From positions 711-64,710 of the forward strand of contig CAZWCX010000028.1 in the NCBI GenBank assembly GCA_964632945.1: a stretch of DNA of 64,000 bases. Direction: 5' to 3'. Origin of the DNA: an uncultured Planctomycetia bacterium (GTDB taxonomy: Bacteria; Planctomycetota; MHYJ01; WSZJ01; CAZWCX01). A program made the position numbers and the translations under genes. The notes beneath the pieces were generated by a model, which saw only the letters and a list, made by a program, of their open reading frames with translations, ran no database searches and was not told the origin of the DNA. Below, piece after piece: positions 17,682 to 58,811 of this stretch (position 1 is the first letter of the stretch; each line of letters opens with the position of its first letter).

Positions 17682-17783
17682 AAGTTGGTTGGCCTTGTGC
17701 GCACTACCGCCGACGTGTGTCCGCGTCTCGCCCCATCCTGTCTGTCTTGGCGCAGTTGCGCCAAGTCGGGCGTAGTATGCTGG

Positions 17784-38585: not shown

Positions 38586-38685
38586 GCGACAAGTCCTCCG
38601 CGGTCAGAAACGGGGGGGGAGCGCGTCGATCCGTCCAGCCCCCGGTATCGGGCCGGGACCAGGCGGGACCGGAAGGACGAGCCGG

Positions 38686-41324: not shown

Positions 41325-42100
41325 GCGCGGACCCTTTCCAAGGCGCGTCGGACGAGCACGGGGACGAGCGCCCGGCGGTACTCCGCGGAGGCGCGCACGT
41401 CATCGATCGGCCGCGCCAGCAGGGCGGCCTCCTCGGGAGAAGGGGGGACCAGGATCGGCGTCGGCGCGACGGCCCCGAGCGCGACGCGCGGCGTCCGGTC
41501 CGAAACGAAACAGGCGACGCTCACGAGAGCGAGGTCCATCGCGTTGCGGGGCGAGAATTTCAGGTAGGTGCCGCGCCCGCGCTGGACAGGCACGTCGATG
41601 CGCGTGAGGATCTCGTCGAGGGCCAGGGCGCTCTTGCCCACCCCGCGGAAGAACTCGGCGATCGGCAGGGTCCGTTCCCCGCGCGGGCAGGCGATCGTCA
41701 ATTCCGCCTCCAGGCACAGCAGCGGCGGGGCGAGATCGGCCGCCGGCGAGGCGTTCGCGAGATTGCCGCCGACGGTCGCCAAGTTGCGCACTTGAGGGGA
41801 CGCCATCTGCAGCGCGGCTTCGACGAGGAGTGGATGCCGCCGCTGGATCACGGGAGACCGCGCAAGGTCTTCGAGGGTGGTCAGCGCCCCGATCGACGTG
41901 ACCCCCGGCGCTTCGTGAATCCCGTGCAGCGCCGTGATTCGCTTCAGGTTGATCACGCGCACTCCGTCCGGTCGCATGCGCTTCAGACGCACGAGCAGAT
42001 CGGTGCCCCCCGCCAGCAGCCGGTTCGGCCCGACCCCTCCGGACAGGAGGGACAGGGCATCCTCCAGGCGGGAGGGAGCGTGGTAGTCGAACGGTTTCAT
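41321..42100 (-). CDS. FAD-binding subunit of XDH-family enzyme (CoxM/XdhB-like)
   Basis: 259 aa FAD-binding PCMH-type domain (AGGTDLLVRLK). Confidence 0.8.
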   Translation of the reverse strand: MKPFDYHAPSRLEDALSLLSGGVGPNRLLAGGTDLLVRLKRMRPDGVRVINLKRITALHGIHEAPGVTSIGALTTLEDLARSPVIQRRHPLLVEAALQMASPQVRNLATVGGNLANASPAADLAPPLLCLEAELTIACPRGERTLPIAEFFRGVGKSALALDEILTRIDVPVQRGRGTYLKFSPRNAMDLALVSVACFVSDRTPRVALGAVAPTPILVPPSPEEAALLARPIDDVRASAEYRRALVPVLVRRALERVRA

Positions 42101-42618
42101 GCCAGAGACTCTCCCGAGAGGAAGGCCTTGCGATTGCGCTCGAACGCCTCCGGGCTGGAGGTGCGGCGCAATGCTTCGAGGAGGGCGTCCGCGCCGGGAA
42201 ACAGCTCCGGAGCGCGCCGGCGGGCGAAGCCGAGCAGGACGAGGTTGCTGCCGCGCGGGAAGCCGAGGCGGGCGGCCGCGGCGTCGGCGTCACAGACGGC
42301 ACGATCGGAGGCCTCGGTCCGGCCGTTGACGAACAGCAGGCCGTCGGGGGACAAGAACGCCTGCGCGGCCGGTCGCCGGCTCGCGTCGAGGGCGATCGCC
42401 GCATCCGCCCGCCCGATCCGCACCAGTGGGCTGTCGTGGTCGCCGAGCTTGACGTGCGAGTAGACCGCCCCGCCGCGCTGTGCCATGCCATGGGTCTCGG
42501 AGGTCAGGACCTCGCGCCCCTCCAGGATGGCGGCCTCGCCGAGGATCCGGGTGAGGAACAGGACGCCCTGGCCGCCCAGGCCGCAGAGGACGAGACACGC
42601 GCGGCGGTCCCTCATGGC
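42097..42618 (-). CDS. iorB: indolepyruvate:ferredoxin oxidoreductase beta subunit
   Basis: Internal Met MRDRRACLVLCGLGGQGVLFLTRILGEAA...SETHGMAQRGGAV. Confidence 0.7.
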   Translation of the reverse strand, partial: AMRDRRACLVLCGLGGQGVLFLTRILGEAAILEGREVLTSETHGMAQRGGAVYSHVKLGDHDSPLVRIGRADAAIALDASRRPAAQAFLSPDGLLFVNGRTEASDRAVCDADAAAARLGFPRGSNLVLLGFARRRAPELFPGADALLEALRRTSSPEAFERNRKAFLSGESLA

Positions 42619-44408
42619 CGTTCTCCCCCCGTCGGGCGGGCCAGGATCGCTCCCGGCGGGCAGACATCGATGCAGTTGCCGCAGTCGTTGCAGCGGAACC
42701 GGTCGATGCGCACCTTTCCGGTGGCTGTGTCCTTCACGAGGGCAGGGCAGCCGCAATACTTGAGGCAAATGTCGCAGCCGGTGCACTCCTCGGGCTCGAC
42801 CGTGACCCGGCCCTTCGACTCGGGCGGCACGCAGAGGGCGCAGGCCCGTCGGGCGATCACCAGGGCCATGCCGCCGTCGGCGCCGCGGGTGAACTCATGG
42901 GCGCGTCGCAGGAGGGCGATCAGATCGTCGGTGCGGAAGGGGTCGATCGCTTCGACGAAGCGGACGCCGAGGGCGCGGGCGATACCCTCGATCGCGGCCC
43001 CCGCGACCGCGGGCGTCGGCTGGAAGCCGGTCATCGCCACCGTCCCGTTATCCATCACCAGGACGACGAAGCGCGCGCCCGAGGTGACGGCGTTGAGCAA
43101 TCCGGGGATCCCCGAGTGGAAGAAGGTCGAGTCGCCGATGATCGCCACCACCGGGCGGTCCGACCCGTCGCGCCGATGGGCGTGCCAGAATCCATTGGCG
43201 AGGGTGATCGACGCGCCCATGTCGAGGCAGGTGTCGAGCGCCCCCTGGTTGACGCCGAGCGTGTAGCAGCCGATGTCGCCGGAGTAGATCGCGCGCGGCA
43301 GGGCGAGGCGCAAGGCGTAGAAGGCCGAGCGATGGCCGCAGCCCGGGCAGAGCGTCGGCGCGGGTCCCGGGGGCAGCGACGGCGCGTCGAGTGCGGGCGA
43401 CGACCTTCCGTCCCGCACGATCGAAGCGATCGTCTCCGGGGTGAGTTCGCCGTGCGCCGGGACGTGGCCGGTGAGCCGCCCGAGCACCTTGCGGCGATCG
43501 GGGATCTGCATCTCGATGGCGTAGTCCGGTTCTTCGAGGACGAGCACCCGTTCGTGCCTCTCGACGAAACGCATCACCCGCCCGAGCGGAAGCGGGAAGG
43601 GGGTGCCGATCTTCAACAGGGGGAGGGATCGCCCTTCGTCGCGCAGGAGATCGCGCACCACGGCCCAGGCCATCCCGCCGGCGATGATTCCGAGGGGGCC
43701 GATACCGGCGTCCTCGCGAACGAACGGCGACTCCTCGAACTCGCGTCGAATGGCCTCGAGCTTGGCGTTCAGCTCCTTGTGCAACTGGAGACGGAATCGC
43801 GGGGTGGCGGCCCAGCGGGACGGGTCCTTGACGAACTTTGCCGGGCGCGTTTCGGGATTCAGCGGTCGGATCGGCACCGGTTGGCGTGCGTGGCATACTG
43901 CGGTGGTGGGTCGGAGGAGCACCGGAACGCGGTGGCGTTCGGACAGGTCGAAGGCCGCGGCGACCATGTCCCGCGCCTCGCGCGGGGACGAGGGATCGAG
44001 GACCGGCACCTTGGCGAAGAGGGTGAACAGCCGCGAGTCCTGCTCGGTCTGAGAGGATTGCGGTCCCGGATCGTCGCACGAGACCACGACGAACCCGCCG
44101 ACGACGCCGGTGTAGGCCGCGGACAGCAGAGAATCGCTGGCGACGTTGAGTCCGACCTGTTTCATGGCGACGGCGGAGCGTTTGCCGCACAGGGAGGCGG
44201 CGAGCGCCACGTCGAAGGCCACCTTCTCGTTGATCGACCACTCGGTCGTGATCGAGACCCCCGCGTCCCGGGCCTGGGCGATCGTCTCTTCGAGGATTTC
44301 GGTACTCGGAGTGCCCGGGTAGGCGGTGGCGATTTCGCAGCCGGACTCCAGCAGGCCGCGCGCGATCGCTCCGTTGCCGAGGAGGAGCGGGGAGTTCGTG
44401 GTCAGCAT
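42612..44408 (-). CDS. iorA: indolepyruvate:ferredoxin oxidoreductase alpha subunit
   Basis: Internal Met MLTTNSPLLLGNGAIARGLLESG, a TPP-binding region and C-terminal 2x[4Fe-4S] (CTGCDICLKYCGC...CNDCGNCIDVCP). Confidence 0.8.
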   Translation of the reverse strand: MLTTNSPLLLGNGAIARGLLESGCEIATAYPGTPSTEILEETIAQARDAGVSITTEWSINEKVAFDVALAASLCGKRSAVAMKQVGLNVASDSLLSAAYTGVVGGFVVVSCDDPGPQSSQTEQDSRLFTLFAKVPVLDPSSPREARDMVAAAFDLSERHRVPVLLRPTTAVCHARQPVPIRPLNPETRPAKFVKDPSRWAATPRFRLQLHKELNAKLEAIRREFEESPFVREDAGIGPLGIIAGGMAWAVVRDLLRDEGRSLPLLKIGTPFPLPLGRVMRFVERHERVLVLEEPDYAIEMQIPDRRKVLGRLTGHVPAHGELTPETIASIVRDGRSSPALDAPSLPPGPAPTLCPGCGHRSAFYALRLALPRAIYSGDIGCYTLGVNQGALDTCLDMGASITLANGFWHAHRRDGSDRPVVAIIGDSTFFHSGIPGLLNAVTSGARFVVLVMDNGTVAMTGFQPTPAVAGAAIEGIARALGVRFVEAIDPFRTDDLIALLRRAHEFTRGADGGMALVIARRACALCVPPESKGRVTVEPEECTGCDICLKYCGCPALVKDTATGKVRIDRFRCNDCGNCIDVCPPGAILARPTGGERP

Positions 44409-44520
44409 GGCCGGACCTCCGGGCACGGGAGGGCCGTCGCGCGGGCGCGTCGCCTGCGCGGGGCGTGCAGGCGCATGGAACGGGGATGGAACGAACCGGC
44501 GGGGGCCGGCGCGGACGGGT

Positions 44521-45027
44521 TCACGGCCGTGCAACCTCGAATCGACAGCGGGGGGCGCCGCAGGCCGCGCATTCGGTCTCGCGGGACGCCAGTCCGGGAG
44601 CCAGTACCCCTGCAGCGACACCCGCCAGGACGCCCCGGATGAAGTGGCAGACCGGCGCGTCCGACCGTCCGTACGCCTCCGCGAACGGGGAGGAGCGGAC
44701 CTCCACGACCATGCGGCTCTGGGCACGGTCGAACTCGACCAGGTCGAAACGGCCCCAGCCGATCTGACCGCCCATGCGGCACAGGAAGCGCGCGGTCTCC
44801 TCGTCCGAGTGGCCGAAGGCGTCCTGGTACCGGCGCGCGGATGCCGATCCGCCGGCGAATCCGCCGGCATGCAGGAACTCGGCCGCGGGTTCCCCCAACG
44901 CGCCCTCCACCCCCTTCTGGAAGGCGGCGAGCGTCTCGGGACGGATCAGGAGATAACGCACGCCCTGGAACGCGAGTCTTCCCTCGTCGGCATCCCAGGA
45001 GAGAGTTTCGAGCACCCGATTCTCCAC
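44521..45027 (-). CDS. V4R (4-vinyl reductase) domain protein
   Basis: 168 aa with V4R-like features. Confidence 0.55.
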   Translation of the reverse strand: MENRVLETLSWDADEGRLAFQGVRYLLIRPETLAAFQKGVEGALGEPAAEFLHAGGFAGGSASARRYQDAFGHSDEETARFLCRMGGQIGWGRFDLVEFDRAQSRMVVEVRSSPFAEAYGRSDAPVCHFIRGVLAGVAAGVLAPGLASRETECAACGAPRCRFEVARP

Positions 45028-45105
45028 GTCACCCTGTCTCCCAAGCGGGATGTCGATGGCTCCCCGGTTGCGGCTTTCGCGCGGCGGTCCCGGACTCCGC
45101 CGCGT

Positions 45106-46839
45106 CTATGTCTGCGACCGTCGCGCGCGCTCGGCGCGAGTTGCGGTCTCGTCCACCCTGCCGGCGGCGTCAAGCACCACTCCGTAGTCGCGCAGGGCCG
45201 CAGCGGCCGCCACCTTCCCGTCCAAGACGTCGGCGGCGACGAGGGCGGGATCGCGCTGCAGCGGGTCCCCATAGCCGCCGGCCCCCGGCATGCGCAGGCT
45301 CACAACGTCGTCGCGACGCAGCTGGTCGAGTCCCTTCGACTTCAACGGCTTTTCCCCGGGCGTGCCCGGATTGAGCACGAAGCGCCCCCGGCCCCCCTCC
45401 TTGCCGCCGAAGAGGCCGAACGGACCGAATCGCTGCCGGTCCCCGTAGCGCGCGAACGAGGCTTCGTCGACCAGCACGCGGATGTCGCGGCGCACGCCGA
45501 GTGCGCCGCGAAAGCGCCCCGCGCCGCCGCTATCCGGCACCAGTTCGTAGCGCTCGATCCGCACCGGGTATTCGAGTTCCACCGCTTCGACCGGGGTATT
45601 CTTGAACCGGGCGAGATGCGAGTCCTGGCCGTCGCGACCGTCCTTGTCCGGGCGCGCCCCCGCGCCGCCGCCCTGGATGTCGATGAAGACGAAGCGCCGG
45701 CCCGTACCCGGATGGATCCCGCTGATGCCGCAGTTGGTGATCTGCCCGTGGCTGCCCGCCATGACCCTCGCCGGCACGGCGGCGGACAGGGCCTTGAGCA
45801 TGGCCTCGGTGATCTTCTGCGAGGTATTCGTGCGCGCGCCCACCGCCCCGGGCGGCAGCGGATTGACGATCAAGCCCGGCCGGGCGTCGACGGTGAAGGG
45901 GCGGTAGCAACCCGAGTTCGGCGGCACGTGCGGGTCGACGACCGCAATCAGGGCGTAGTAGACCGCCGCATGCACCGTGGCGAGGGGACAATTGATGTTG
46001 CCGCGGACCTGGCGCGCGGTGCCCTCGAAATCGATCGTTGCGCGGTCGCCGCGCTTGTGGATGTTGACCACGAGTCGGATCGGGTCTTCGGTCACGCCGT
46101 CGTCGTCAATCCAGTCTTCCCCGGTGTAATCGCCGTCCGGCAGCGCCTTGAGTCCCTCCCGGATGCGCTTTTCGGAAGTGTCCAGCAGCAGCGCGAGACA
46201 GCCGTCGACGGTTTCGCGTCCGTGCTTGGCGAAGATCCCGGCCGCCCGGCGAGCGCCGACGAAATTGGCCGAGGCCTGGGCGCGGATGTCGCCGAGAGTC
46301 TTATCGGGCACGCGGATGTTGTTGGCCAGGATGCCGAACAGTTCGGGATCCTCCTCGCCCTTTTTCCACAGCTTGACGAACGGGAGACGCAGTCCCTCGA
46401 GGTAGATCTCGGTCAGGCCGCCCGCCGTTCCCCCGGGGGCGGCGCCGCCGAGGTCGGTGTGGTGGGCGATGGAGCCGACAAATCCCACAAGCTCGCCGTC
46501 GTGGAACACGGGGGAGAAGGCGACCAGGTCCATCACGTGCTGGCCGCCCCGATAGGGGTCGTTGAAGACGATGACGTCCCCCTCGTGGATCGGTTCGTTT
46601 CGAAATCGCTCGACCAGCGAGCGCATGGGAATCTCGAACCCGGTGAGGAGCATCGGGGCGTGGTGGGCCTGCGCCACCGTGTTGCCGTGGCGGTCGAAGA
46701 CCGCACAGGTCATGTCCTCGATTTCCTTGATGACCGTCGATCGGGCGGTGCGCACGAGGGTGCGCCCCATCTCGTCGGCGACCTGCTCCATCGCGTATCG
46801 GAGCACCTGCATGGTGATCGGATCGACCTGGGCGGGCAT
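45106..46839 (-). CDS. hyuB: hydantoinase B/oxoprolinase family protein
   Basis: 577 aa matching the HyuB family from the N-terminus (MPAQVDPITMQVLRYAMEQVADEMG...). Confidence 0.85.
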   Translation of the reverse strand: MPAQVDPITMQVLRYAMEQVADEMGRTLVRTARSTVIKEIEDMTCAVFDRHGNTVAQAHHAPMLLTGFEIPMRSLVERFRNEPIHEGDVIVFNDPYRGGQHVMDLVAFSPVFHDGELVGFVGSIAHHTDLGGAAPGGTAGGLTEIYLEGLRLPFVKLWKKGEEDPELFGILANNIRVPDKTLGDIRAQASANFVGARRAAGIFAKHGRETVDGCLALLLDTSEKRIREGLKALPDGDYTGEDWIDDDGVTEDPIRLVVNIHKRGDRATIDFEGTARQVRGNINCPLATVHAAVYYALIAVVDPHVPPNSGCYRPFTVDARPGLIVNPLPPGAVGARTNTSQKITEAMLKALSAAVPARVMAGSHGQITNCGISGIHPGTGRRFVFIDIQGGGAGARPDKDGRDGQDSHLARFKNTPVEAVELEYPVRIERYELVPDSGGAGRFRGALGVRRDIRVLVDEASFARYGDRQRFGPFGLFGGKEGGRGRFVLNPGTPGEKPLKSKGLDQLRRDDVVSLRMPGAGGYGDPLQRDPALVAADVLDGKVAAAAALRDYGVVLDAAGRVDETATRAERARRSQT

Positions 46840-46852
46840 CGGGCTCCTCCGG

Positions 46853-48907
46853 CTACTCGAGGGTGATGATCAGGTTGCCGTACTCGTCCACTTCCGCACG
46901 GGCACGCGGAGTGATCACGGTGGATGAGGCCGGCTCCTCGACGATGGACGGACCCGCGAAGGCGTGTCCGGGCGCCAGTCGGGCGCGATCGAAGACCGGG
47001 CAGGGGACGGTGCCGGCACCGGCGAACCACACCGGCCGAGTCGCCTTTCGCGCGACGTCCGGGTCGGGGGCGCCGCGGGGTCGCCGTGGGAGGGCGAGCG
47101 GGCGCGTTCGGCCGACCGCGACCATCCGCACGTTGATGAACTCGACGAGTTCATCCACCGCGGAGAACTCGTAGATCTGCCGGTGGAGCTCGTGGAAACG
47201 CGCGATCGTTGCGGCCACGTCAGCGGCCGTGAGCGGCCGGCGTTCCGTCACCGGCACGGGGATTTCGTAGCTCTGCCCCTGGTAGCGCATGTCCGCGGAC
47301 CCGTGAAGCTCCAGCCTGTCGGGCGGTTCGCGTTCCGCGGCCAACCGCGCGCGTCCTTGCGCTTCGAGCTCGTCGAGCGCCTCGCTGAGAATCCCGGGCG
47401 TGACGTCGCGCTCCGAGAGCGCCAGTGTGCGAACGAAGTCGTGCCGCGTATCCGATGCGACCGCGCCCAATGCGGAGAGGGTCGACGGGAAGGTGGGCAC
47501 GATCACCCGCTTCATCCCCAGTTGGTCCGCGATTTCCACCGCGTGCAACGGTCCGGCGCCGCCGAACGCGAGCATGGCGAACTCGCGCACGTCGTTTCCG
47601 CGCTCGATGACGCGGACGCTGATCCCCTTGACCATGTTGGCGGTGACGATACGCAGGATCCCCCAGGCGGCATCCTCGACCGGAATCTTCAACGGCCGGG
47701 CCACGCGTTGTTCGATCGCGCGGACGGCGCGCCCGGGATCCAGGCGGATCTCCCCGCCGAGGAAGTAGTCGGGGTTGATTCGTCCCAGCACGACGTTGGC
47801 GTCGGTGACCGTCGGGTGTTCGCCGCCGCGGCCGTAGCAGGCCGGACCGGGCTCCGCGCCGGCGCTCTGCGGGCCGACGTTGAGGGCGCCGCCGGGATCG
47901 ATCCAGGCAATGCTGCCCCCGCCCGCGCCGATCCCATCGACATCCACCATCGGGATCTTGACCGGGTATCCCTCGAGCATCCCGTCCGAGCAGACCCGGG
48001 GTCGCCCGTGTTCGACCAGACCGATGTCGAAGCTCGTTCCTCCCATGTCCACGCCGATCACGTGGAGGTGGCCCGCCAGGCGGCCCATCATCGAGTTGGC
48101 CACCGCACCGCCCGCGGGCCCCGAATTCACGATGCGGATCGCGTGGGTGCGAGCGACATCGAGGGGCATCATTCCGCCGCTCGCCTGCATCAGACGCAGG
48201 TCCACGCCGTCGTACGCCTCGCGCAGTCGCGCGGACAGGCTGTCGAGGTACCGCTGCACGATCGGTTGCAGGTACGCGTTGAGCACGGTTGTGGAGGAGC
48301 GCTCGAACTCCCGGAATTCCGGGGCGATCTCCGACGAGATCGAGACGAAGGCGTCCGGGTAGATCTCGCGGCAGAGTTCCCGGGTGCGGCGTTCGTGCGC
48401 CGGATTGAGAAACGAGAAGAGGTAGCAAACGGCGATCGCCTCCACTCCCTCGTCGCGGAGGAAGCGGGCGGCGGAGCGCACCCCGTCTTCGTCGAGCGGC
48501 GTCACCACGCTGCCGTCCGCGCCGATCCGCTCGCGGACCTCGAGACGCAGGCGGCGGCGGACCAGGGGCTGCGGCAGATCGACCGACATGTCGTAGAGGC
48601 CGCCGTCCGGGCGTTCGATTCGGCCGATGTCGAGGACGTCACGGAACCCGTCGGTGGTGATGAGTCCGACGCGGGCGCCCTTCCGCTCGATCAGGGCGTT
48701 GGTCCCGATGGTGGTGCCGTGCACGATGGTGGTGAGGGCGTCCGCCGGCGCCTGCGCGGCGGCCAACACTTTCCGGATCCCGGACATCACCGCCTGCGCG
48801 GGGTCCCTCGGAGTCGAGAAAGTCTTCGCCCAGTGGATTCGCCCCCCGGCCTCATCGACCAGCACCAGGTCCGTGAACGTCCCGCCGACGTCGATCCCGA
48901 GACGCAT
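46853..48907 (-). CDS. hyuA: hydantoinase A/oxoprolinase family protein
   Basis: Internal Met MRLGIDVGGTFTDLVLVDEAG. The 1270-aa ORF in the track is an artefact of a stop-free upstream frame. Confidence 0.85.
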   Translation of the reverse strand: MRLGIDVGGTFTDLVLVDEAGGRIHWAKTFSTPRDPAQAVMSGIRKVLAAAQAPADALTTIVHGTTIGTNALIERKGARVGLITTDGFRDVLDIGRIERPDGGLYDMSVDLPQPLVRRRLRLEVRERIGADGSVVTPLDEDGVRSAARFLRDEGVEAIAVCYLFSFLNPAHERRTRELCREIYPDAFVSISSEIAPEFREFERSSTTVLNAYLQPIVQRYLDSLSARLREAYDGVDLRLMQASGGMMPLDVARTHAIRIVNSGPAGGAVANSMMGRLAGHLHVIGVDMGGTSFDIGLVEHGRPRVCSDGMLEGYPVKIPMVDVDGIGAGGGSIAWIDPGGALNVGPQSAGAEPGPACYGRGGEHPTVTDANVVLGRINPDYFLGGEIRLDPGRAVRAIEQRVARPLKIPVEDAAWGILRIVTANMVKGISVRVIERGNDVREFAMLAFGGAGPLHAVEIADQLGMKRVIVPTFPSTLSALGAVASDTRHDFVRTLALSERDVTPGILSEALDELEAQGRARLAAEREPPDRLELHGSADMRYQGQSYEIPVPVTERRPLTAADVAATIARFHELHRQIYEFSAVDELVEFINVRMVAVGRTRPLALPRRPRGAPDPDVARKATRPVWFAGAGTVPCPVFDRARLAPGHAFAGPSIVEEPASSTVITPRARAEVDEYGNLIITLE

Positions 48908-49026
48908 GGGATGGACTCCCTTCTGGGAAACGGAACCGACCCCGGACGGCCACGCGAGCTCTCGCGCCGGCCGAGCGCGCCAGGAGGATCCGTTCCGCCG
49001 CGGCGAAAAGGTCCCCCTCGCACGGT

Positions 49027-50640
49027 TCAGAGGCGAATCGGTTCCCGGTACTCCCCGAGGACCTGTTTCATCACCGCCACGATCTCGCCGAGCGAGGCAT
49101 AGGCCCGCACGGCGCGGATCATCGCGGGCATCACGTTGGCCGTTCCCGCGCAGGCCTCGCGCACGCCCGCGAGCGCCGACTCCACCGCGCCGGCATCCCG
49201 CCCCGAGCGCACTTCCGCCAGGCGGCGGCACTGTTCGTCCATCGCCTCCGGCCGGTACGGATGAAGCTCGACCGCCGCCGACCCGCACGACTCCAGGCGA
49301 TGCCGGTTGACGCCGACTTTGACGGTCTCGCCGGTCTGGATCCGACGTTCGAGTTCGTAGGCCTGCCGCGCCACGGCCTGCTGCACGAGTCCCTCGCGCA
49401 CGGCGCGGACGATCCCGCCCCATTCGCGGTCCACGCGCACGATCTCCGCGGCGATGCGACGCTCCATCTCCGTGGTGAGACTTTCCACGTAGTAGGAGCC
49501 GGCGAGCGGATCGACCGTGTCGCACAGTCCCGCCTCCTCGGCGAGGATCTGCATGGTCCGCAGCGAGATCAGGGAGGCCCGCTCGCTCGGAATGGTGTAG
49601 GCCTCGTCGTAGCAGCAGAGCGCCATGGTCTGGGTGCCGGAGAGGGCGGAGATCAGGGCGTAGAGGGTCCCGCGGACGATGTTGTTTTCCGGTTCCTCGA
49701 TGGTGAGACCGCCGCCGCCGCCGCCCGCGATCATCTTCATTTTCATGGTGTCGTCCCGCCGGGCGCCGAACTCGTCCTTCATCAGGCGAGCCCACAAGCG
49801 GCGGGCCGCGCGGAACTTGGCGACCTGCTCGAACAGGTTGCCGAAGACATCGAAGTTGAAGGAGATCCGCCCGGCGAACTCGTCGACCGCCAGACCACGG
49901 CGCAGCCCTTCGTGAATGTAGGCGCGGGCGATGGCGAAGGCGTAGGCGATTTCCTGCACCGGGTCGGCGCCCGATTCGCGGATGTGGTAGCCGCAGACGC
50001 TGGTGGGATAGTAGAGGGGCATCTCGCGGCTGCAGAATTCGAGGGTGTCGCCGATCAGGCGGATCGAGGGATCGACCGGAAAGATCCACGCTCCCCGGCC
50101 GATGAACTCCTTGAGGATGTCGTTCTGGGTCGTACCGCGCACGCGGGCGCGCGCGAGGCCCTGCTGCTCCGCGACGGCGACGTACATGGCGAGAAGGACG
50201 GGCGTGACCGCGTTGATCGTCAGCGACACACTGACGCGCTCGATCGGGATGCCGGCGAAAGCGACTTCCATGTCCTTGAGGGTGTCGATGGCCATGCCCA
50301 CGCGTCCCACCTCGCCGGCCGAGCGCGGGTGATCGGAGTCCAGCCCCATCTGCGTAGGCAGGTCGAAGGCGACGTTGAGGGCATCCTGGCCGTTTTCGAT
50401 GAGGAAGCGAAAGCGCCCGTTGGTCTCGGCCGGCGTGCCGAAGCCCGCATACTGCCGCATCGTCCACGGACGGGCCCGGTACATGAGCGGGTGGATGCCG
50501 CGCGTGAAGGGAAAGGCCCCGGGCCGGCCGATGTCGAGCGCAGGGTCGATTCCGGCAAGCGATTCGGGGCCGTAGACGGGCGCGACCTCGATCCCGGATT
50601 CGAGAACGACCCGTTTTGCGCCGGATTCTCCGGACGACAT
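49027..50640 (-). CDS. methylmalonyl-CoA mutase family catalytic (substrate-binding) subunit
   Basis: MCM TIM-barrel domain (FTRGIHPLMYRARPWTMRQYAGFGT...). Lacks the B12 domain, which is encoded by the next gene. The start could be at 50703. Confidence 0.8.
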   Translation of the reverse strand: MSSGESGAKRVVLESGIEVAPVYGPESLAGIDPALDIGRPGAFPFTRGIHPLMYRARPWTMRQYAGFGTPAETNGRFRFLIENGQDALNVAFDLPTQMGLDSDHPRSAGEVGRVGMAIDTLKDMEVAFAGIPIERVSVSLTINAVTPVLLAMYVAVAEQQGLARARVRGTTQNDILKEFIGRGAWIFPVDPSIRLIGDTLEFCSREMPLYYPTSVCGYHIRESGADPVQEIAYAFAIARAYIHEGLRRGLAVDEFAGRISFNFDVFGNLFEQVAKFRAARRLWARLMKDEFGARRDDTMKMKMIAGGGGGGLTIEEPENNIVRGTLYALISALSGTQTMALCCYDEAYTIPSERASLISLRTMQILAEEAGLCDTVDPLAGSYYVESLTTEMERRIAAEIVRVDREWGGIVRAVREGLVQQAVARQAYELERRIQTGETVKVGVNRHRLESCGSAAVELHPYRPEAMDEQCRRLAEVRSGRDAGAVESALAGVREACAGTANVMPAMIRAVRAYASLGEIVAVMKQVLGEYREPIRL

Positions 50641-50745
50641 TGGCACCGCCTCCGCCCGTGGACACTGCTTAACCAGGGTACTTATATGGAAGGGAGGCGT
50701 CAAGGAGGATCGGGGGGACGCCGGGGGCGTGCGCGCGCGGCAGGG

Positions 50746-51162
50746 TCACGTTCGCGGACCCAGCCCCCGCACGGTGCGGCAAATCTCATCCAGGTCCGAT
50801 CCGGTGGGGAAGACCGCCGCGGCGCCCAGTTCGAGCAGGCGGGTCCGGTCCACGTGCGGGATGTTCCCGCCGACGACCACGCGGACATTCGCAAGCCCGG
50901 CGGCGCGCAAGCGTTCCACCAGACTGCGGAGAATTTCGAGATGGGCGCCCGAGAGCAGGGATAGCCCCACCACGTCGACGGCTTCCTCGGCCGCCACCTG
51001 GACGATCTCCTCAACCGATTTGTGGAGGCCGGAATAGATCACCTCACATCCGGCGCGCGCCAGGGCGATCGACACGACCTTGGCGCCGCGGTCGTGACCG
51101 TCGAGGCCCGGCTTCGCCACCAGCACGCGGACGGGGGCGGTTGCGGGTTGGGTGGGATTCAT
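50746..51162 (-). CDS. cobalamin (B12)-binding domain protein, mutase small subunit
   Basis: 138 aa with VLVAKPGLDGHDRGAKVVSIAL (DxHxxG B12 motif). Confidence 0.8.
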   Translation of the reverse strand: MNPTQPATAPVRVLVAKPGLDGHDRGAKVVSIALARAGCEVIYSGLHKSVEEIVQVAAEEAVDVVGLSLLSGAHLEILRSLVERLRAAGLANVRVVVGGNIPHVDRTRLLELGAAAVFPTGSDLDEICRTVRGLGPRT

Positions 51163-52370
51163 GCCGCCTCCTGTACGGACACGACCAGCGCGGCCGCGGT
51201 GTCGCCGGCGGCGCATCCGGACAGGGCGCCGATTCCGCCGCCGCGCAAGATCAGCTCCTCGACCAGTTCGGCGGTCAGGCGCATTCCCATCGGCGCCTGC
51301 GGGTGTCCCCAGACCAGGGACGAGCCGAAGCGGTTGACCGTTTCCGGCTTCAGCCCGAGCTCGCGGCAGAAGTGGACATCGCCCACGGCAAAGGGGTTGT
51401 GCAGCTTCCAGGCCGCCACGTCCGCCACCGTCACGCCCGCGTCCGCGAGCGCGGCCCGGACCGCCGGCACGGGGGCGCGCGGCATCGTCCCCTTCTCCGT
51501 GCGCGCCTCGGCGTAGGAGAGCATCCGCACCTCGATTCCCGTGGTGCGGCCGAGTTCCCGGGCGCGTTCGCGGGTCGCGACCACGAATCCGGCATTGCCG
51601 TCCGCCGGGCGCGTCTGCGTACCCGGAGTCACCGTCCCCCCCTCCCGGGCCGGACGCAGTCGCTTGAGACCCTCGGCGGTCGTGGCCGGGATGCCCTCGT
51701 CGCCCGTCACCGTGGCCGAAACGCGGCGCCCGGCGGCATCTTTGACTTCGAGCGGGAGGGTCAGGAATCGTCGCAGGAAGGCTGCATCGCCCGCCAGGGC
51801 GTCCTGGTACTGTGCGTGACGCAAGAGCGTCCGTTCCTCCTGCTCCTCGCGCGACGAACGGATCTCCCGGGCGAGTCGTTCGGCGGTGTCGATCATCGCC
51901 CCCTGCGCCCACGGGTCGAGCATGAAGTTGTCCCACACCCAATCCTCGGCGTCTCCCCTTCCGCCCGGTCCGCCGGGGTTGGGATAGTAGAGATGCGGAC
52001 CGTTGCTCGTGCGGTCCAGCGTCACCGCGAGGACGCTTCGTCGCCCGCCCGTCTCCACTTCCATGGCCGCGGCGGCCAGGACCCGCGCGGAAGTCGCGCA
52101 CGCCTGGCTGATCGTCGGACCGGTGAGCGCGGGCGCGCCCAGGTGCGCGGCCAGCCACGGTCCCGCGTAGAAGGCGTGCGGCTGCGGGACGGTCATGCCG
52201 ACCACGAGCGCGTCCAGCCCGGACGGATCGATCCGCCGCTCGGCGAGCGCCTTCTTCGCCACGTCCGCCGCGAACGGTACCGCATTGAGGTGGGCATAGC
52301 TGCCCTGCCAGCGGCAGAACGGGGTGGACCACCAGCCGCCCGGGGGCAGGTAGGCCGCGGTGAACTTCAT
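51159..52370 (-). CDS. thiolase-family protein
   Basis: Internal Met MKFTAAYLPP. Active-site-like SQACATS and a C-terminal thiolase fold. Confidence 0.65.
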   Translation of the reverse strand: MKFTAAYLPPGGWWSTPFCRWQGSYAHLNAVPFAADVAKKALAERRIDPSGLDALVVGMTVPQPHAFYAGPWLAAHLGAPALTGPTISQACATSARVLAAAAMEVETGGRRSVLAVTLDRTSNGPHLYYPNPGGPGGRGDAEDWVWDNFMLDPWAQGAMIDTAERLAREIRSSREEQEERTLLRHAQYQDALAGDAAFLRRFLTLPLEVKDAAGRRVSATVTGDEGIPATTAEGLKRLRPAREGGTVTPGTQTRPADGNAGFVVATRERARELGRTTGIEVRMLSYAEARTEKGTMPRAPVPAVRAALADAGVTVADVAAWKLHNPFAVGDVHFCRELGLKPETVNRFGSSLVWGHPQAPMGMRLTAELVEELILRGGGIGALSGCAAGDTAAALVVSVQEAA

Positions 52371-52384
52371 GGGCGCTTCTCCGG

Positions 52385-53530
52385 TCAGCGGGTCAGGGTT
52401 TGCGCGATCACGTCGCGCAGGATCTCCGCGGTGCCGCCCCCGTACAGCAGGAAGCGGGCGTCGCGGAAAAACCGCTGCGCCTCGTATTCCATGGCGAAGC
52501 CATACGCGCCGAAGACGCGCGTCGTCTCGTCGGCCAGGGTGTTTGCCATCTCGGCGGCGAACAGCTTGGCCATCGCCGCCAGTCCGGTGTCGGGCGTCCC
52601 GGCATCGATGCCCCGCGCGGCCCGGTAGACGAGGGAGCGCGCCGCCTCCAGCCGGGTCGCCATTTCCGCGAGCTTGTGCCGGATCGCCTGGAATTCGCCG
52701 ATCGGCCGGCCGAAGGCGGCGCGCTTTGCCGCGTAGGCGACGGCGGCATCCAGGGCCGCGCGCCCGACGCCGAGCGACAGCGCCCCGGTCATCACGCGAA
52801 TCTCGTTGAGGATCCCCTTCAGGAGCCGCCCCCCTTGGCCGCGCCGGCCGCCGAGCAGGTGGTCCGCGGGGAGTCGCACGTCCTCCAGAAACAGCTCCGC
52901 CGTTTCGGAGGCACGGGCGCCGAGCTTCGGGATCTTCGCGCCCACCGTCACCCCGGGCGTGTCCGCCGGGACCAGGAACAGGTCGATGCCCGCAAACCCG
53001 GCATCCGGTTCTGTCTTGGCCGCGACGGTGAAGAAATCCGCCGCCGTGGCGTTCGTGATCCACGTCTTTTGGCCGTTCAGGACCCACCCGCCCCCCTCGA
53101 CCGGCAGGGCGCGCGTGCGGATCGCCCCGAGGTCGGATCCCGCCGCCGGTTCGGTCATGGCGATCACCCCGACTCTTTCGCCGCGCAGGGCGGGGCGGAA
53201 GTGCGCGTCCTTCTGCGCCGGGGTGCCGAAGCGGAAGAGGAAGTCCGTGCCCATGAGGCCCTGCATCGCCACGGTCGCCGCCAACCCCAGAGATCCGCGC
53301 GCCAGCTCCTCACACATCAGGTTGAAGATCATCGAGGTGCCGCCGCCTCCCCCCTCGGCCTCGGGGTAACGAAGGCCGAACCAGCCGAACCCCGCCACGC
53401 GCTCGAACAGCGGGCGCGGAAACGCGTCGGCCTCGTCCAGCGCGCGTGCCGCCGGCACCACCTCCCGGTCCACGAAATCCGCCACCGTGCGGCGGAACAT
53501 CGTCTCCTCCTCACCGAGCAGATCGATCAT
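52385..53530 (-). CDS. acyl-CoA dehydrogenase
   Basis: 381 aa with ACAD N-terminal, middle and C-terminal domains (MTEPAAGSDL, GQKTWITN). Confidence 0.85.
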   Translation of the reverse strand: MIDLLGEEETMFRRTVADFVDREVVPAARALDEADAFPRPLFERVAGFGWFGLRYPEAEGGGGGTSMIFNLMCEELARGSLGLAATVAMQGLMGTDFLFRFGTPAQKDAHFRPALRGERVGVIAMTEPAAGSDLGAIRTRALPVEGGGWVLNGQKTWITNATAADFFTVAAKTEPDAGFAGIDLFLVPADTPGVTVGAKIPKLGARASETAELFLEDVRLPADHLLGGRRGQGGRLLKGILNEIRVMTGALSLGVGRAALDAAVAYAAKRAAFGRPIGEFQAIRHKLAEMATRLEAARSLVYRAARGIDAGTPDTGLAAMAKLFAAEMANTLADETTRVFGAYGFAMEYEAQRFFRDARFLLYGGGTAEILRDVIAQTLTR

Positions 53531-53545
53531 CCGGGTGCCCTCCGC

Positions 53546-54730
53546 CTACCGAGCCGTCCCGTGCGCCCGCAAGGACTCGATCTCCGCGGCGGTTTTCCCG
53601 ATCTCGCCCAGAACGCTGCCGGTGTGTTCACCCATGCGCGGGGGGAACGACATCCGCAGTCCGGCGCGCGCGAGCCACTCGGAGATCAGCGGCGGCGGGG
53701 GCAGGGCGAGCTCGCGCCCGGTCCGGGGATCGCGGGCGCGCACCCGATCGGACACGCAGGGGTCCTGCAGGACCTCCTCCAGCGTGGCCACCCGGGCCGC
53801 CGGGACGCCGACCTCGCGGAACACCGCGAGCCACTCGCCGACCGTACGCGCCTGCAGGACCCGGGCCAGCTGCCCGTGGAGGCGGTCCCCGGCCGCCATC
53901 CGTCCGGCATTGCCCCGGTACTCCGCGCACGCCAGCGGGGCGAAGTCCCCGTGTCCGGTGAGCTTCTCCCATTGCCGGTCGCTGCCGACGGCAAGATAGA
54001 GGTAGCCGTCGCGCGCAGGATAGACCGAGACCGGACCGAAAAACGGGTGGGTCGAACCGCGCCGGCGCGTCATCGTCCCGAAACTCGCGGCCATTCCGAT
54101 CGGCAGGATCATCCACGCGAAGGCGCTGCGCGCCATGGCCAGGTCGATCCGGCTTCCCCGTCCGGTCCTCTCCCGCAGGTAGAGCGCCTTCAGGATCGCC
54201 CCGTAGGCATGCTCGCTCGTGCCCAGGTCGACCATGGGGAGACCGAATACCTCGGGCGGTCCGTTGGCCTCGCCGGTCAAATCCATCCAGCCCAGGCGAG
54301 CCTGCAGGATCGGGTCGTAGGCGGCCTCGTTGCTTTCGGGGCCAAACCCGGTGATGCTCAGCCAGATGACCTCCGGACGAAGCGCGCGCAAGGTCTCATA
54401 GTCGATGCCGAGCCGGGGGAAGTTGCGCGGGAGCGTGTTGGCGGCGAACACGTCGACCGGCAGTCGCCGCACCAGTTCGTGCAGGAGCGCGCGCCCATCC
54501 TCCGTTCCGAGGTCGAGCGTCACCGATTCCTTGCCCGCGTTGTAGGGCAGGAAGTAGGCGTTCATCCCCGGTTCGCCCAGGAGGTTTTCCCCGACCGAAC
54601 GGTTCGGATCGGGCGCGGCGGGATTCTCCAGCCGGATGACGCGCATCCCTTCGGCGGCCAGTCGGAAGGTGAGAAAGGGAAGCGTGAGCGCCTGCTCCAT
54701 GCTCAGAACGGTGAGGCCTTCGAGACTCAT
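53546..54730 (-). CDS. family III CoA-transferase (CaiB/BaiF)
   Basis: Internal Met MSLEGLTVLSMEQALTLPFLTFRLAAEGMRVIRLE. Confidence 0.8.
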   Translation of the reverse strand: MSLEGLTVLSMEQALTLPFLTFRLAAEGMRVIRLENPAAPDPNRSVGENLLGEPGMNAYFLPYNAGKESVTLDLGTEDGRALLHELVRRLPVDVFAANTLPRNFPRLGIDYETLRALRPEVIWLSITGFGPESNEAAYDPILQARLGWMDLTGEANGPPEVFGLPMVDLGTSEHAYGAILKALYLRERTGRGSRIDLAMARSAFAWMILPIGMAASFGTMTRRRGSTHPFFGPVSVYPARDGYLYLAVGSDRQWEKLTGHGDFAPLACAEYRGNAGRMAAGDRLHGQLARVLQARTVGEWLAVFREVGVPAARVATLEEVLQDPCVSDRVRARDPRTGRELALPPPPLISEWLARAGLRMSFPPRMGEHTGSVLGEIGKTAAEIESLRAHGTAR

Positions 54731-55957: not shown

Positions 55958-56812
55958 CTAGCACTGCACCCAGTCGGGGGTGACGAGTTCGGGGACGATG
56001 CCGGCCCGGTGGCCGTGTTCGAGGAAGCGGCGCACGGCCTCGCGCCCGTCCGGGCCGCAGTCGAGGGTGCGGCGGTTGACATACATGCCCACGAACCGGT
56101 CGACCGCGGCGCGGTCGAGCCCGCGGCCGTAGGATTGCGCGTGGTCGAGGGCCTCTTCGCGGTGATCGAGGGCGTAGGCGATGCCGGCCTTGAGGAGACG
56201 GCCGATCTCGCGGGCGGCCTCGGGTCCGAGGTCGCGGCGGATGGCGTTGCCCCCGAGCGGCAGGGGGAGCCCGGCCGTGTCGGCGCGCCACCAGCACCCC
56301 AGGTCGACGACCCGCTCCAACCCCTCCCGGGCGTACGTGAGTTGGCCTTCATGGATGACGAGGCCCGTCTCGGCCTTGCCGGCGAGGACGTGCTCGAGGA
56401 TGGCGTCGAAAGGAACGACTTCGGTGCGCACGTCCGGTTGGTAGAGGCGGAGGGCGAGGTGGGCGGAAGTGAGCGGACCGGGGATGGCGACCGTGCGGCC
56501 GCGCAGGGCCGCGCGCGGGTCGGCGCCGGACGGGATCGTACCCGGACGCGCGACCACGATCGGACCGTAGTCCTCGCCCATGCTCGAGCCGGTGGTGAGG
56601 AGCGCGTACCGGCGGTGAACGTGGGCGTAGGCGTGATAGGAGACGGCCGTGACCTCGTACACGCCCTCGTGCGCCTTGCGGTTCAGGGTCTCGATGTCCG
56701 AGAGGACGTTCTCGAAGCGATAGCGGCCGGTGTCGATGCGGCCGTTCACGAGCGCGTGGAACATGAAAGCATCGTCGGAGTCGGGGCTGTGCGCGACGCG
56801 GATCCGGTCCAT
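55958..56812 (-). CDS. MqnA/MqnD-family protein (futalosine-pathway menaquinone biosynthesis type)
   Basis: 284 aa with the N-terminal VAHSPDSDDAFMFHAL. Confidence 0.6.
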   Translation of the reverse strand: MDRIRVAHSPDSDDAFMFHALVNGRIDTGRYRFENVLSDIETLNRKAHEGVYEVTAVSYHAYAHVHRRYALLTTGSSMGEDYGPIVVARPGTIPSGADPRAALRGRTVAIPGPLTSAHLALRLYQPDVRTEVVPFDAILEHVLAGKAETGLVIHEGQLTYAREGLERVVDLGCWWRADTAGLPLPLGGNAIRRDLGPEAAREIGRLLKAGIAYALDHREEALDHAQSYGRGLDRAAVDRFVGMYVNRRTLDCGPDGREAVRRFLEHGHRAGIVPELVTPDWVQC

Positions 56813-56822: not shown

Positions 56823-57224
56823 TCAGGCTCCGGCGACGAACGGCGAGGCGTGGTGCACGAGCATGCGCCAGGCGCCGTCCTCGCGGCGGAACAGGTTGGT
56901 GGCGTGGACGGTGGCGTAGTTGGGGGCGTCGCCGGGGACGGTGACGATGTTTTCGACGCAGTTGACCCAACCGGCGTCTCCGGCCGTGCCGGAGGTCACG
57001 TCGGTGATGATGAACTGGATGAAGCCGGTGTGCCGGAAGATCTCCTCCCACGAGGCGCGGATGCGGGTCCAGCCGCGCAACATGCGCCAGCCGGGATGGA
57101 TGCAGGCGACCGCCTCGGACCTGGACCAGACCTCGTCCATGGACTCGAGCTTGAGGGACTCGAACGCGCGGTAGAACCGTTCGTTGGCTTCGCGCAGCTC
57201 GCGTTCGGGTTCGCTCGGGGTCAT
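56823..57224 (-). CDS. NTF2-like/SnoaL-like small protein
   Basis: 133 aa from an internal Met. The start overlaps the upstream stop in ATGA. Confidence 0.55.
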   Translation of the reverse strand: MTPSEPERELREANERFYRAFESLKLESMDEVWSRSEAVACIHPGWRMLRGWTRIRASWEEIFRHTGFIQFIITDVTSGTAGDAGWVNCVENIVTVPGDAPNYATVHATNLFRREDGAWRMLVHHASPFVAGA

Positions 57225-57790
57225 GAGGACGCGCCTTGCCGGGCGGGCATGTCGTCCTCGAGGGGGACGCCGAGGGCCTCGACCAGGCGATTGATGTAGT
57301 TGAAGTAACCGATCACCTGGACGGCGTCGAGGACGGCGCGGTCGTCGAGACCGGCGGCGCGGAGGGCGTCGACGTCGGCCCGGCTCATGCTCGCGGGGGC
57401 GAGGGTGAGGCGTTCCGCGAAGCCGCAGAGCGCCTGCTGCCGCGGATCGAGGGGGGCGGTGCGCCAGTCCTGCTTCACCGCGTTCGCCAGGGCGTCGTCG
57501 TGACACTCCGACCGGAGGTCCTCGCCGTGGGCGTGGGTTCAGTAATGACAGTGGTTCGCGCGCGAGACGACCGTGGCGAGCAGTTCCCGGTCGGCGCGAG
57601 AGAGGGGGCTGTCGCCGAACATGGCGTCGCGGTAGAAGCCCATGCTGCCGCGCAGGGTGTCCGGGTTGAGGCTCATGGCGCGCACCACGTGGAAGACCTT
57701 GCCGGCGCGCTTGAGGGCGGCGTCGTACATCGTCTTCAGGGTGCCGGCGGCCTGTTCGGGGGCGACGGTGCGGATGTGGAAGTCGGGCAT
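57221..57790 (-). CDS. AhpD/carboxymuconolactone-decarboxylase-family protein with in-frame TGA (candidate selenocysteine) at 57539-57541
   Basis: ORFs 57539..59032 (last 83 aa) and 57221..57478 are in the same frame. Read-through gives ...ANHCHY-U-THAHGEDL..., i.e. C-x-x-[TGA]-x-x-x-H aligned to the AhpD CxxCxxxH active site. Confidence 0.55.
57490..57538 (-). promoter_or_regulatory. candidate bacterial SECIS hairpin downstream of the in-frame UGA
   Basis: mRNA ...GAC-CUCC-GGUC-GGAG-U-GUC... forms a stem with a GGUC apical loop and a bulged U, about 25 nt after the UGA. Confidence 0.3.
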
Positions 57791-57866
57791 GGGCAGGTCT
57801 CCTGAATGGGCAGGATGATACCCCCGGAGAGGCGGGAAGGGAAGGAACCGCAGGGGGGCGGGGGGC

Positions 57867-58811
57867 TCAGCGGGGCGGGCGATCGCGGTGCGCGGCGTGA
57901 CAGGAGGTGCAGGAGGCGGCGGCGGAGCGGAAGGCGAGATCCGCGTTTCCGGCGTTGCCTGCGCGGAGCGCGGTCTCCAGGGCGGCGGCATGGTCGCGAA
58001 GGGCGTGGAGTCCCCGGCGGTACGATTCCGGGCGCGATTCGATCCCGGTGGCGCGGGCGAGTTCGGCGGCGACCTCGGCGACGTGGAGGGCCTCGAGCGC
58101 GGGCACGACGTCCGGATGATCCGGGGGCGGGGCCCAGCCGGCGCGGCGCGCGGCCTCGAGTCGCTCCCAGGCCAGGTCGAGGACGACCATGGCTTCGGCC
58201 AGGGGGGGGACGGGCGCAACCGCGGGGAAGGTGACGTCGGCGGTCCGCCACTCCGCCGGGTCGGGCGGGCGGCAGGTCGCGACGGAGCGATAGAGACCGG
58301 CGTATTTCTCCGCGGTGCCGGCCCGGCGCAGGAAGTCGAGGGCGCGGTCGCCGGTCCAGGCGCCGCTGCCGACGAGGGCATAGGCGGCGGCGGCGGGCCC
58401 GCGGTGACGGCCGTGGTGACAGTGGAGGAAGACCGGGCCGGGCAGGTCTCGCAGGGCGCGAAGGAGCGAGAGTCCGCGATCGCGCGGGATTTCGTCGTAC
58501 CCGATCGGCAGGTGGACGTAGCGGATCCCGTGGCGCGCCGCGGTATCGACGTCCGGCCGCATCGCGTCGACGCTGACGATCGTGCGCACGCCGCGCGCGG
58601 CCAGGGCGCGAAAGTCGTTGTCGCCCCGGGGCGAGCCCCCGCTGAGGAGGCGATCGGAAACCTCGAAGACGTTTTCGATCCGGCCGATCGCGACGGGACC
58701 GGGGGGGGCGGCCGGCGCCGATCGGCAGCCGCCGGAGCACGCGAGGACGGCGCCGGCGCCGAAGAGGACCGCGAGCGCCGCGGTGGCGCGCACGCGGCGT
58801 GTGGGGGGCAT
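57867..58811 (-). CDS. lipoprotein with CX5R phosphatase-like domain and C-terminal CxxCH heme motif
   Basis: Signal/lipobox ...LACSGGC, HCHHGRHRG (Cys-X5-Arg), and C-terminal CTSCH. Confidence 0.5.
   Translation of the reverse strand: MPPTRRVRATAALAVLFGAGAVLACSGGCRSAPAAPPGPVAIGRIENVFEVSDRLLSGGSPRGDNDFRALAARGVRTIVSVDAMRPDVDTAARHGIRYVHLPIGYDEIPRDRGLSLLRALRDLPGPVFLHCHHGRHRGPAAAAYALVGSGAWTGDRALDFLRRAGTAEKYAGLYRSVATCRPPDPAEWRTADVTFPAVAPVPPLAEAMVVLDLAWERLEAARRAGWAPPPDHPDVVPALEALHVAEVAAELARATGIESRPESYRRGLHALRDHAAALETALRAGNAGNADLAFRSAAASCTSCHAAHRDRPPR

Follow-up and report, generated by a model that had tools for sequence, protein, structure and literature searches.

An AhpD-like gene with an in-frame TGA codon in an uncultured Planctomycetia bacterium very probably encodes a CxxU selenoprotein

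The contig CAZWCX010000028.1 of an uncultured Planctomycetia bacterium (GenBank assembly GCA_964632945.1) contains, in a stretch of 64 kb that was analysed as a whole and that is called the window here, a gene for an AhpD-like protein that is divided by an in-frame TGA codon. Our analysis leaves us highly confident that positions 57790..57221 on the minus strand are a single gene in which UGA is read as selenocysteine (Sec) rather than as a stop, and the doubt that is left concerns almost entirely the Sec machinery of the host. With equally high confidence, we predict the product to be a 189-residue thiol-selenol oxidoreductase of the AhpD/CMD fold that has Sec in place of the second cysteine of the CxxC motif. 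As judged from its sequence, the gene has every feature by which the AhpD-like CxxU selenoprotein family is recognized.

Results

A single reading frame that is interrupted at the redox motif

The region 57790..57221 of the minus strand is one reading frame of 189 codons, broken by only one internal stop, and represents a complete gene of the TIGR01926 family ("peroxidase-related enzyme"). It starts with ATG (57790..57788), ends with TGA (57223..57221), and is preceded at a distance of 8 nt by the Shine-Dalgarno-like sequence AGGAG (57799..57803). The internal TGA, the predicted Sec codon, is codon 84 (57539..57541). Its translated context is ...SRANHCHY*THAHGEDLRSECHDD..., or, with a longer N-terminal side, ...LATVVSRANHCHY*THAHGEDLRSECHDD....

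If U is written as C, the protein matches the TIGR01926 profile with 163.7 bits (curated cut-off 81.8), and it extends across the TGA, from residue 9 to 179 of the protein and from position 6 to 177 of the 178 in the profile. The Pfam domain CMD (PF02627) is found as well. Moreover, the alignments to the solved structures 6k40_A (E = 6e-36, residues 14-175), 2oyo_A (E = 3e-31), 3c1l_A (E = 9e-31) and 2pfx_A (E = 3e-30) all span the TGA junction. Since both the TIGR01926 match and the structure alignments cross the TGA, we can conclude that the two open reading frames (ORFs) are one gene. In the alignments to 6k40 and 2oyo, the C-x-Y-C motif of the solved structures falls on C81-H-Y-[TGA]. The resulting redox motif, C81-H-Y-U84-T-H-A-H88 (57527..57550), together with E69 (57584..57586) corresponds to the proton-relay residues of AhpD: in E69...C81-x-Y83-U84-x3-H88, the spacing E-x11-C-x-Y-C/U-x3-H is identical to that in the relay sets Glu36/Cys48/Tyr50/Cys51/His55 of PA0269 and Glu118/Cys130/His132/Cys133/His137 of the AhpD protein of M. 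tuberculosis (PMC3141380), so that an equivalent role of these residues is predicted.

Two related families were considered for the protein and rejected. An identity as canonical AhpD (TIGR00777) finds no support, the score being 18.6 bits where the cut-off is 191.95, and no peroxiredoxin gene is present among the annotated ORFs that neighbour the gene in the window. The match to the family NF041238 (AhpD_rel_CFYUT) has 78.3 bits where the cut-off demands 175, and is confined to profile positions 153-340.

The TGA codon is conserved throughout the relatives

For the comparison with relatives, we took the 80 best-matching loci each from GTDB species representatives and from metagenomes of the Joint Genome Institute (JGI). 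At the position equivalent to codon 84, TGA is present in 80/80 of the GTDB-genome loci and in 80/80 of the metagenome loci, i. e. in 160/160. The GTDB-genome loci encode proteins that are 47-61% identical to the window protein and come from at least eight phyla, among them Acidobacteriota, Planctomycetota/Phycisphaerae, Chloroflexota, Actinomycetota, Gemmatimonadota, Verrucomicrobiota, Zixibacteria and Poribacteria; in nearly all of them, E69 is kept as E[LM][LMI]. With such unanimity, an error of sequencing, a nonsense mutation peculiar to this organism and a pair of independent genes are practically excluded.

A different picture is found in the protein databases. Among the full-length relatives obtained in the protein search, the TGA column is occupied by Cys in 69 and by Ser in 18 proteins. 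Seven others (P0001-P0005, P0008, P0064) have Trp and one (P0010) has Gly at this position, and these residues are the result of translating TGA under genetic code 4 (Trp) or 25 (Gly). About 20 database entries (within P0081-P0117) are fragments of 103-123 amino acids that begin just past the TGA column; these are the C-terminal halves left by gene callers that halt at the TGA, and one of them, P0081, carries only the name "peroxidase" at NCBI. In the window itself, TGA is the ordinary stop codon of most well-supported genes, e. g. hisC and the genes for acyl-CoA dehydrogenase and methylmalonyl-CoA mutase (MCM). Since these genes end in TGA where their family profiles predict the end, the genome is not recoded for TGA.

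These results agree with the initial annotation of this DNA, which had proposed two ORFs in one frame that are separated only by a TGA codon located at the second Cys of a CxxCxxxH motif, and had expected gene callers to split the gene. Its coordinates and peptide were right, with the minus strand left unstated; the position of the TGA is borne out by the alignment to the Cys homologues and PDB chains, in which the Cys-type proteins continue past the TGA column; and the split is what the C-terminal fragments and the full-length versions with Trp or Gly in the databases reflect.

A conserved SECIS-like hairpin downstream of the TGA

Downstream of the TGA, the minimum free energy (MFE) fold and the comparison with relatives identify a hairpin resembling a selenocysteine insertion sequence (SECIS), GACCUCC-GGUC-GGAG(U)GUC, at 57502..57520 of the minus strand (+19..+37 after the UGA). 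Its stem of seven base pairs carries a GGUC apical loop (57513..57510), the first base of which lies at +26 from the UGA, and a single U is bulged out at 57505. The mRNA that follows the UGA reads ACC CAC GCC CAC GGC GAG GAC CUC CGG UCG GAG UGU CAC, and the hairpin codes for D-L-R-S-E-C-(H). It is present in the MFE fold and has, with few flanking bases, an energy of -9.2 kcal/mol. Energy is a weak discriminator here, as the Cys-form controls L083 and L084 do not have the specific hairpin and yet, being GC-rich, reach folding energies of -6 to -8 kcal/mol.

Covariation was studied in a gap-free alignment of 81 sequences (the window and the 80 GTDB-genome loci). With the hairpin held in a fixed register (+19..+25 with +30..+36, hairpin A), 72% of the cells are paired, as compared to 35-45% when the 3' partners were slid by 1-3 columns as a control. 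The covariation score of hairpin A is 0.154 versus a shuffled mean of 0.094 +/- 0.008, and 0/500 shuffles reached 0.154. At the pair +21:+34, where the rest of the stem is kept, we found C-G in 45, U-A in 6, U-G in 3 and C-A in 0 sequences (Fisher p = 3e-6); this p value and the shuffle statistics take no account of phylogenetic relatedness. The six U-A loci belong to Planctomycetota, Chloroflexota, Acidobacteriota and one unclassified metagenome-assembled genome (MAG), and they combine the synonymous Asp change GAC>GAU with a Val>Ile change (GUC>AUC). Similarly, at the pair +22:+33, a Leu>Phe exchange (CUC>UUC) is accompanied by GAG>GAA in the Glu codon in three loci.

The codon choice in the hairpin is constrained as well. 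Leu at codon +8 is encoded by CUC in 72/76 cases, with 35% expected from the rest of the genes (binomial p about 2e-28), and Arg at codon +9 by CGU or CGG in 75/79 cases, again with 35% expected (binomial p about 2e-29). CGC is used for this Arg in only 4/79 cases although it makes up 49% of the background; thus, G(U/G) is retained in the apical loop, for which GUGC (31), GGUC (11) and GGGC (10) are the variants in the family. The closest relative of the window gene, the metagenome locus L087 (70% identity), has a hairpin identical to that of the window, bulged U included: the third codon positions of the two genes agree in 42/75 cases upstream of the TGA, in 10/10 of the hairpin codons +4..+13, and in 16/27 cases downstream. 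At the protein level, the stretch with the hairpin is translated into a peptide common to the Sec-type proteins, U-x-x-[AS]-H-x-x-D-L-R-x-E-[VIG], whereas Cys-type proteins have C-x-x-H-H-x-x-G-L... at the same place.

The initial annotation had described a downstream stem with a GGUC loop and a bulged U as reminiscent of bacterial SECIS elements. The hairpin with its GGUC loop has held up, being conserved with compensatory changes; the bulged U is present only in the window and L087 and missing from most orthologues, and its likeness to the E. coli SECIS is incidental.

The locus L086 (P0007, NECHYCTIHHARDFGRES) encodes the Cys homologue nearest to the Sec clade and has TGC at the Sec codon. 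About 20-40 nt after the TGC, at the SECIS position, it has kept a strong hairpin, GGGACUUC-GGUCG-GGAGUCC (-10.9 kcal/mol), which looks like a fossil SECIS following a recent Sec-to-Cys conversion.

A second hairpin register in Acidobacteriota-type sequences

Most phyla have hairpin A (+19..+36 in the family register), which is also the form present in the window. In contrast, 19 sequences, mostly from Acidobacteriota and with ...AHGEDLR..., are unable to form hairpin A and instead form hairpin B, CACGGRG-AGGAU-CUCCGUG, at +10..+28 after the TGA (L001, L002, L007-L010, L013, L014, L024, L025, L035, L036, L055, L057, L060, L066, L067, L075, L080). The AGGAU loop of hairpin B lies about 18 nt after the UGA and thus some 8 nt closer to it than the loop of hairpin A (about 26 nt), and the invariant segment CUCCG(U/G) is the 5' arm in hairpin A but the 3' arm in hairpin B. 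If all 81 sequences are held in the fixed register of hairpin B, 69% of the cells are paired and double-sided covariation is not found. The support for hairpin B comes from synonymous-site constraint within the Acidobacteriota-type subset, where these sites are nearly frozen (GGR 19/19, GAU 18/19, CUC 18/19, CGU 18/19).

Some relatives of the gene are linked to the Sec machinery

In the sequences flanking the 80 GTDB-genome loci, ARAGORN detected five tRNA genes, and four of these are tRNA-Sec genes that are located directly upstream of the AhpD-like gene (L006, region 1125-1218; L030, 1635-6535; L061, 2862-6540; L079, 935-6534). Another tRNA-Sec gene, the fifth, was found beside the gene in L122 (2337-2428) when 60 metagenome loci were scanned. 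In L061 and L079, the AhpD-like gene has tRNA-Sec on one side and a selB-selA pair on the other: SelB (TIGR00475) is matched with 354.6 bits in L061 and 343.9 bits in L079, and SelA (TIGR00474) with 518.2 bits in L061 and with 261.6 bits in L079, where selA is cut off by the end of the locus. A fragment of selB is present in L030. Thus, in Actinomycetota-type MAGs, the AhpD-like TGA gene is found inside the sel locus, with selB-selA immediately downstream on the opposite strand.

Genomic neighbourhood and other features of the window

The stop codon of the AhpD-like gene overlaps as ATGA with the start codon (57224..57222) of a gene for a SnoaL_3-family protein of 133 amino acids (56823..57224, minus strand; Pfam PF13474, 95.7 bits), which has also been called in the Logan contig L081. 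This overlap suggests that the two genes are co-transcribed and translationally coupled. The next gene on the minus strand (55958..56812) encodes an MqnA-type protein of menaquinone biosynthesis by the futalosine pathway (PF02621, 227.9 bits). In L087, an MqnA copy with 75.5% identity follows directly after the AhpD-like gene and the SnoaL_3 gene is absent (L087 769-835), indicating either a recent insertion of the SnoaL_3 gene in the lineage of the window or its loss in L087. The upstream gene (57867..58811, minus strand) codes for a dual-specificity-phosphatase-like protein of 314 amino acids (PF22785, E = 1.5e-5, 25.9 bits, below the cut-off of 27), in which a lipoprotein-like N-terminus, a weak phosphatase-like HCHHGRHRG motif (HCxxGxxR(G)) and a C-terminal CTSCH of the haem-c type (CxxCH) form an unusual combination to which no family could be assigned. 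Around the 80 GTDB-genome loci, none of the genes that neighbour the AhpD-like gene in the window is present, and only MqnA is shared with L087. Since the neighbourhood is not conserved, the gene context offers no clue to the function.

Further features of the window are distant from the AhpD-like gene. A BREX-type defence island at 1..~18000 (e. g. 1028-3073, 6066-9716, 9539-13504 and 16146-17783, all on the minus strand) encodes BrxL (PF13337, 421 bits, plus BrxL_N), a PglX/MmeI-like N6-adenine methyltransferase of 1217 amino acids, a reverse transcriptase (RVT_1), and two very large ORFs without Pfam match. Its GC content of about 0.64 is lower than that of the rest of the window (about 0.70), suggesting horizontal acquisition. 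Two small predicted secreted proteins (27695-28300, plus strand; 33153-33659, minus strand) have signal-peptide-like N-termini that are followed by repeated (E)HPKG(E/D)HPKG units; one of them begins with an "RRTFL" resembling a twin-arginine translocation (TAT) signal, and neither matches Pfam. The HPKG units may be metal-binding His-rich repeats.

A long catabolic cluster with all genes on the minus strand (38187-54700) begins with RidA, continues with a three-subunit molybdenum hydroxylase of the xanthine dehydrogenase family (MoCoBD, 2Fe-2S, FAD), a thiamine pyrophosphate (TPP)-dependent ferredoxin oxidoreductase of the POR/indolepyruvate type, a V4R regulator-like protein and hydantoinase/oxoprolinase B and A, and is completed by methylmalonyl-CoA mutase plus its B12-binding subunit, acyl-CoA dehydrogenase and a family III CoA-transferase. 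Some molybdenum hydroxylases carry a labile selenium cofactor, of which there is no sign in this cluster. Finally, a fusion of a 2-thiouracil desulfurase (PF04463) with DUF1722 is encoded at 29771-30769 (plus strand); this is sulfur/thio-nucleobase chemistry with no established link to the AhpD-like gene.

Discussion

Several observations weigh against the assignment as a selenoprotein gene. No selA, selB or selD gene is found among the about 50 annotated ORFs of the 64 kb window, and the tRNA scan of the whole window detected no tRNA-Sec and indeed no tRNA at all. The 76 nt after the UGA are no more stable than shuffled sequences (z = 0.01); stability is uninformative in DNA with 70% GC, and the case was therefore built on comparative evidence, with statistics that disregard relatedness, as stated above. 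Owing to the bulge, the three outermost pairs in the hairpin of the window do not fall into the register of the family consensus, a form that is shared exactly by L087. No Rfam family reached the gathering threshold in the whole window, and in 57440..57580 no SECIS family of Rfam was found at E <= 10, where only chance microRNA-like matches appeared. The bacterial SECIS models of Rfam are lineage- or gene-specific, and the missing match thus says nothing against a function of the hairpin. Finally, both Sec incorporation and the enzymatic activity of the window protein are predictions.

What else could account for a TGA codon in the middle of this frame? If the lineage had lost its Sec machinery, the TGA would now terminate translation and the gene would be a decaying relic. 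The absence of Sec machinery genes from the window fits with this idea, and so does the fact that Sec-to-Cys conversion is known in the family, with the Cys form L086/P0007 still retaining its SECIS-like hairpin. However, the downstream half has stayed intact and in frame and can be matched to TIGR01926 up to the end of the profile, the hairpin codons keep the constrained synonymous choices of the family, CUC and CGG, and the third positions of the hairpin are 100% identical to those of the 70% identical L087 while the remaining gene has diverged. Moreover, the Shine-Dalgarno site and the translationally coupled downstream gene have been retained, and we therefore regard a relic as improbable. 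Even less credible is the idea that the TGA is a true stop between two small genes, one for an N-terminal protein of 83 amino acids and one for a separately translated C-terminal protein of 85-105 amino acids. Such fragments are listed in public databases (P0081-P0117), a called product of 84 residues reaches the contig end in L081, and a GTG start codon is available at 57478; but there is no Shine-Dalgarno-like signal ahead of this GTG, the starts of the database fragments differ from locus to locus as caller artefacts would, and the split would cut the catalytic helix (C81 to H88) of what is one uninterrupted domain in every solved homologue and in the 69 Cys-type homologues.

Two further explanations have next to no probability. 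According to the first, an ordinary TGC or TGT codon for Cys was changed to TGA by a sequencing or assembly error or by a strain-specific nonsense mutation. It is true that two independent Logan contigs of this organism (L081 and L082, 1-1.5 kb, SRR14787579/80) stop short of the TGA and that a scan of metagenome contigs for exact matches to the TGA context gave no second copy. This is opposed by the presence of TGA in all 160 orthologous loci, which come from independent assemblies and include L087 with its identical hairpin. The other explanation, a reassignment of TGA to Trp or Gly in this organism (genetic code 4 or 25), might appeal to the database relatives that carry W (P0001-P0005, P0008, P0064) or G (P0010) at the position; it is at odds with the use of TGA as the stop of most well-supported window genes, with the Cys residues in this column of 69 homologues, and with the location of orthologues next to tRNA-Sec, selB and selA. 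The host phyla are not known to use code 4 or code 25.

If the gene is indeed expressed as a selenoprotein, translation would begin at the ATG at 57790 and the ribosome would meet the UGA at 57541..57539, where the hairpin 19-37 nt downstream with its small G-rich loop GGUC would serve as a bacterial SECIS. This hairpin would recruit the complex SelB-GTP-Sec-tRNA(Sec), so that Sec would be inserted at position 84 without termination. In the all-helical AhpD/CMD fold, Cys81 and Sec84 would be separated by one helical turn, the proton relay would consist of Glu69, Tyr83 and His88, and by analogy to AhpD (PMC3141380) the Cys81/Sec84 pair should cycle between the selenol/thiol and selenenylsulfide states. 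The protein would then reduce either peroxide directly or an oxidised partner protein. SelB recognition of the hairpin, Sec insertion in the host and the redox chemistry are steps that we infer.

The literature has described this family, together with its CxxU motif and SECIS, since 2005, and the gene described here matters for annotation rather than opening a new question. It is one of hundreds of relatives that are mis-annotated in public databases, and a family-specific rule, i. e. a TIGR01926 match combined with C-x-[YF]-TGA-x-x-[AS]-H and the CUCCGK hairpin, would mend many of these annotations. Moreover, the gene makes it probable that this uncultured bacterium of high GC content uses selenium, and provides a further example of an AhpD-type redox centre with Sec. 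Tentatively, and as a possibility rather than an expectation, we suggest that the family might use two mutually exclusive SECIS hairpins and that the AhpD-like gene, as its location between tRNA-Sec and selB-selA in some Actinomycetota suggests, is perhaps a principal reason why some of these bacteria (Gaiellales-like MAGs) keep the Sec trait. If both hairpins were functional, a shift by about 8 nt, a "register switch" of the SECIS, would be recorded in the family, which would then provide a natural test set for the way in which the SelB proteins of different phyla measure the distance from the UGA to the loop.

The hairpin can be compared to the SECIS of E. coli fdhF, with which it shares the location in the coding region just 3' of the UGA, the GGUC apical loop and the conserved G/U. 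In fdhF, the loop begins about 19 nt after the UGA as compared to 26 nt in the window, and a functionally important bulged U is present on the 5' arm, whereas the bulged U of the window is on the 3' arm and not conserved. At the protein level, the family NF041238 (AhpD_rel_CFYUT), the "hypothetical protein 1" of the Sargasso Sea, has a related CMD domain and the motif C-[FH]-Y-U-T; however, its members, at about 357 residues, possess an additional N-terminal half, and the window protein matches only the C-terminal half of the profile. The AhpD protein of M. tuberculosis (TIGR00777), an adaptor that reduces AhpC, belongs to the same CMD/AhpD fold family and follows the same proton-relay logic, with Glu118, Cys130, His132, Cys133 and His137 corresponding to E69, C81, Y83, U84 and H88 of the window protein. 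In the latter, the motif is located in the N-terminal rather than the C-terminal half, Tyr replaces His132, and neither ahpC nor genes of a lipoamide system adjoin the gene. Closer relatives are the Cys-type proteins with the structures 6k40, 2oyo, 2pfx, 3c1l and 2prr, which can be aligned over residues 14-180 (E = 6e-36 to 1.5e-19); 6k40 was deposited as alkyl hydroperoxide reductase AhpD, and the other four are uncharacterised peroxidase-related proteins. They share the catalytic helix Glu...C-x-Y-C-x3-H and have Cys at the position of the predicted Sec. After the motif, these proteins continue with S-H-G-A-A-L-R and the window protein with A-H-G-E-D-L-R-S-E, a difference between Cys and Sec forms that is partly imposed by the SECIS hairpin.

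The closest match is the AhpD-like CxxU family itself (COG2128 / TIGR01926), an established class of Sec-for-Cys replacement, as the initial annotation had stated: 27 sequences with CxxU were first reported from the Sargasso Sea metagenome in 2005 (PMC1088965), 299 sequences of "AhpD-like 1" followed from the GOS (Global Ocean Sampling) data in 2008 (PMC2398784), a 2026 review has the entry "AhpD-like protein, TIGR01926, CxxU" (PMC13188914), and BSepDB lists AhpD-like and takes it as its example family (PMC13326102). With this family, the window gene shares the model, the CxxU motif in which Sec takes the place of the second Cys, the stem-loop right after the UGA with a G in a small apical loop, and the widespread Cys homologues. 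Nothing essential differs: the hairpin of the window has a lineage-specific bulged U, and while the published work on the family is mostly marine, the relatives presented here are largely MAGs from soil, sediment and freshwater.

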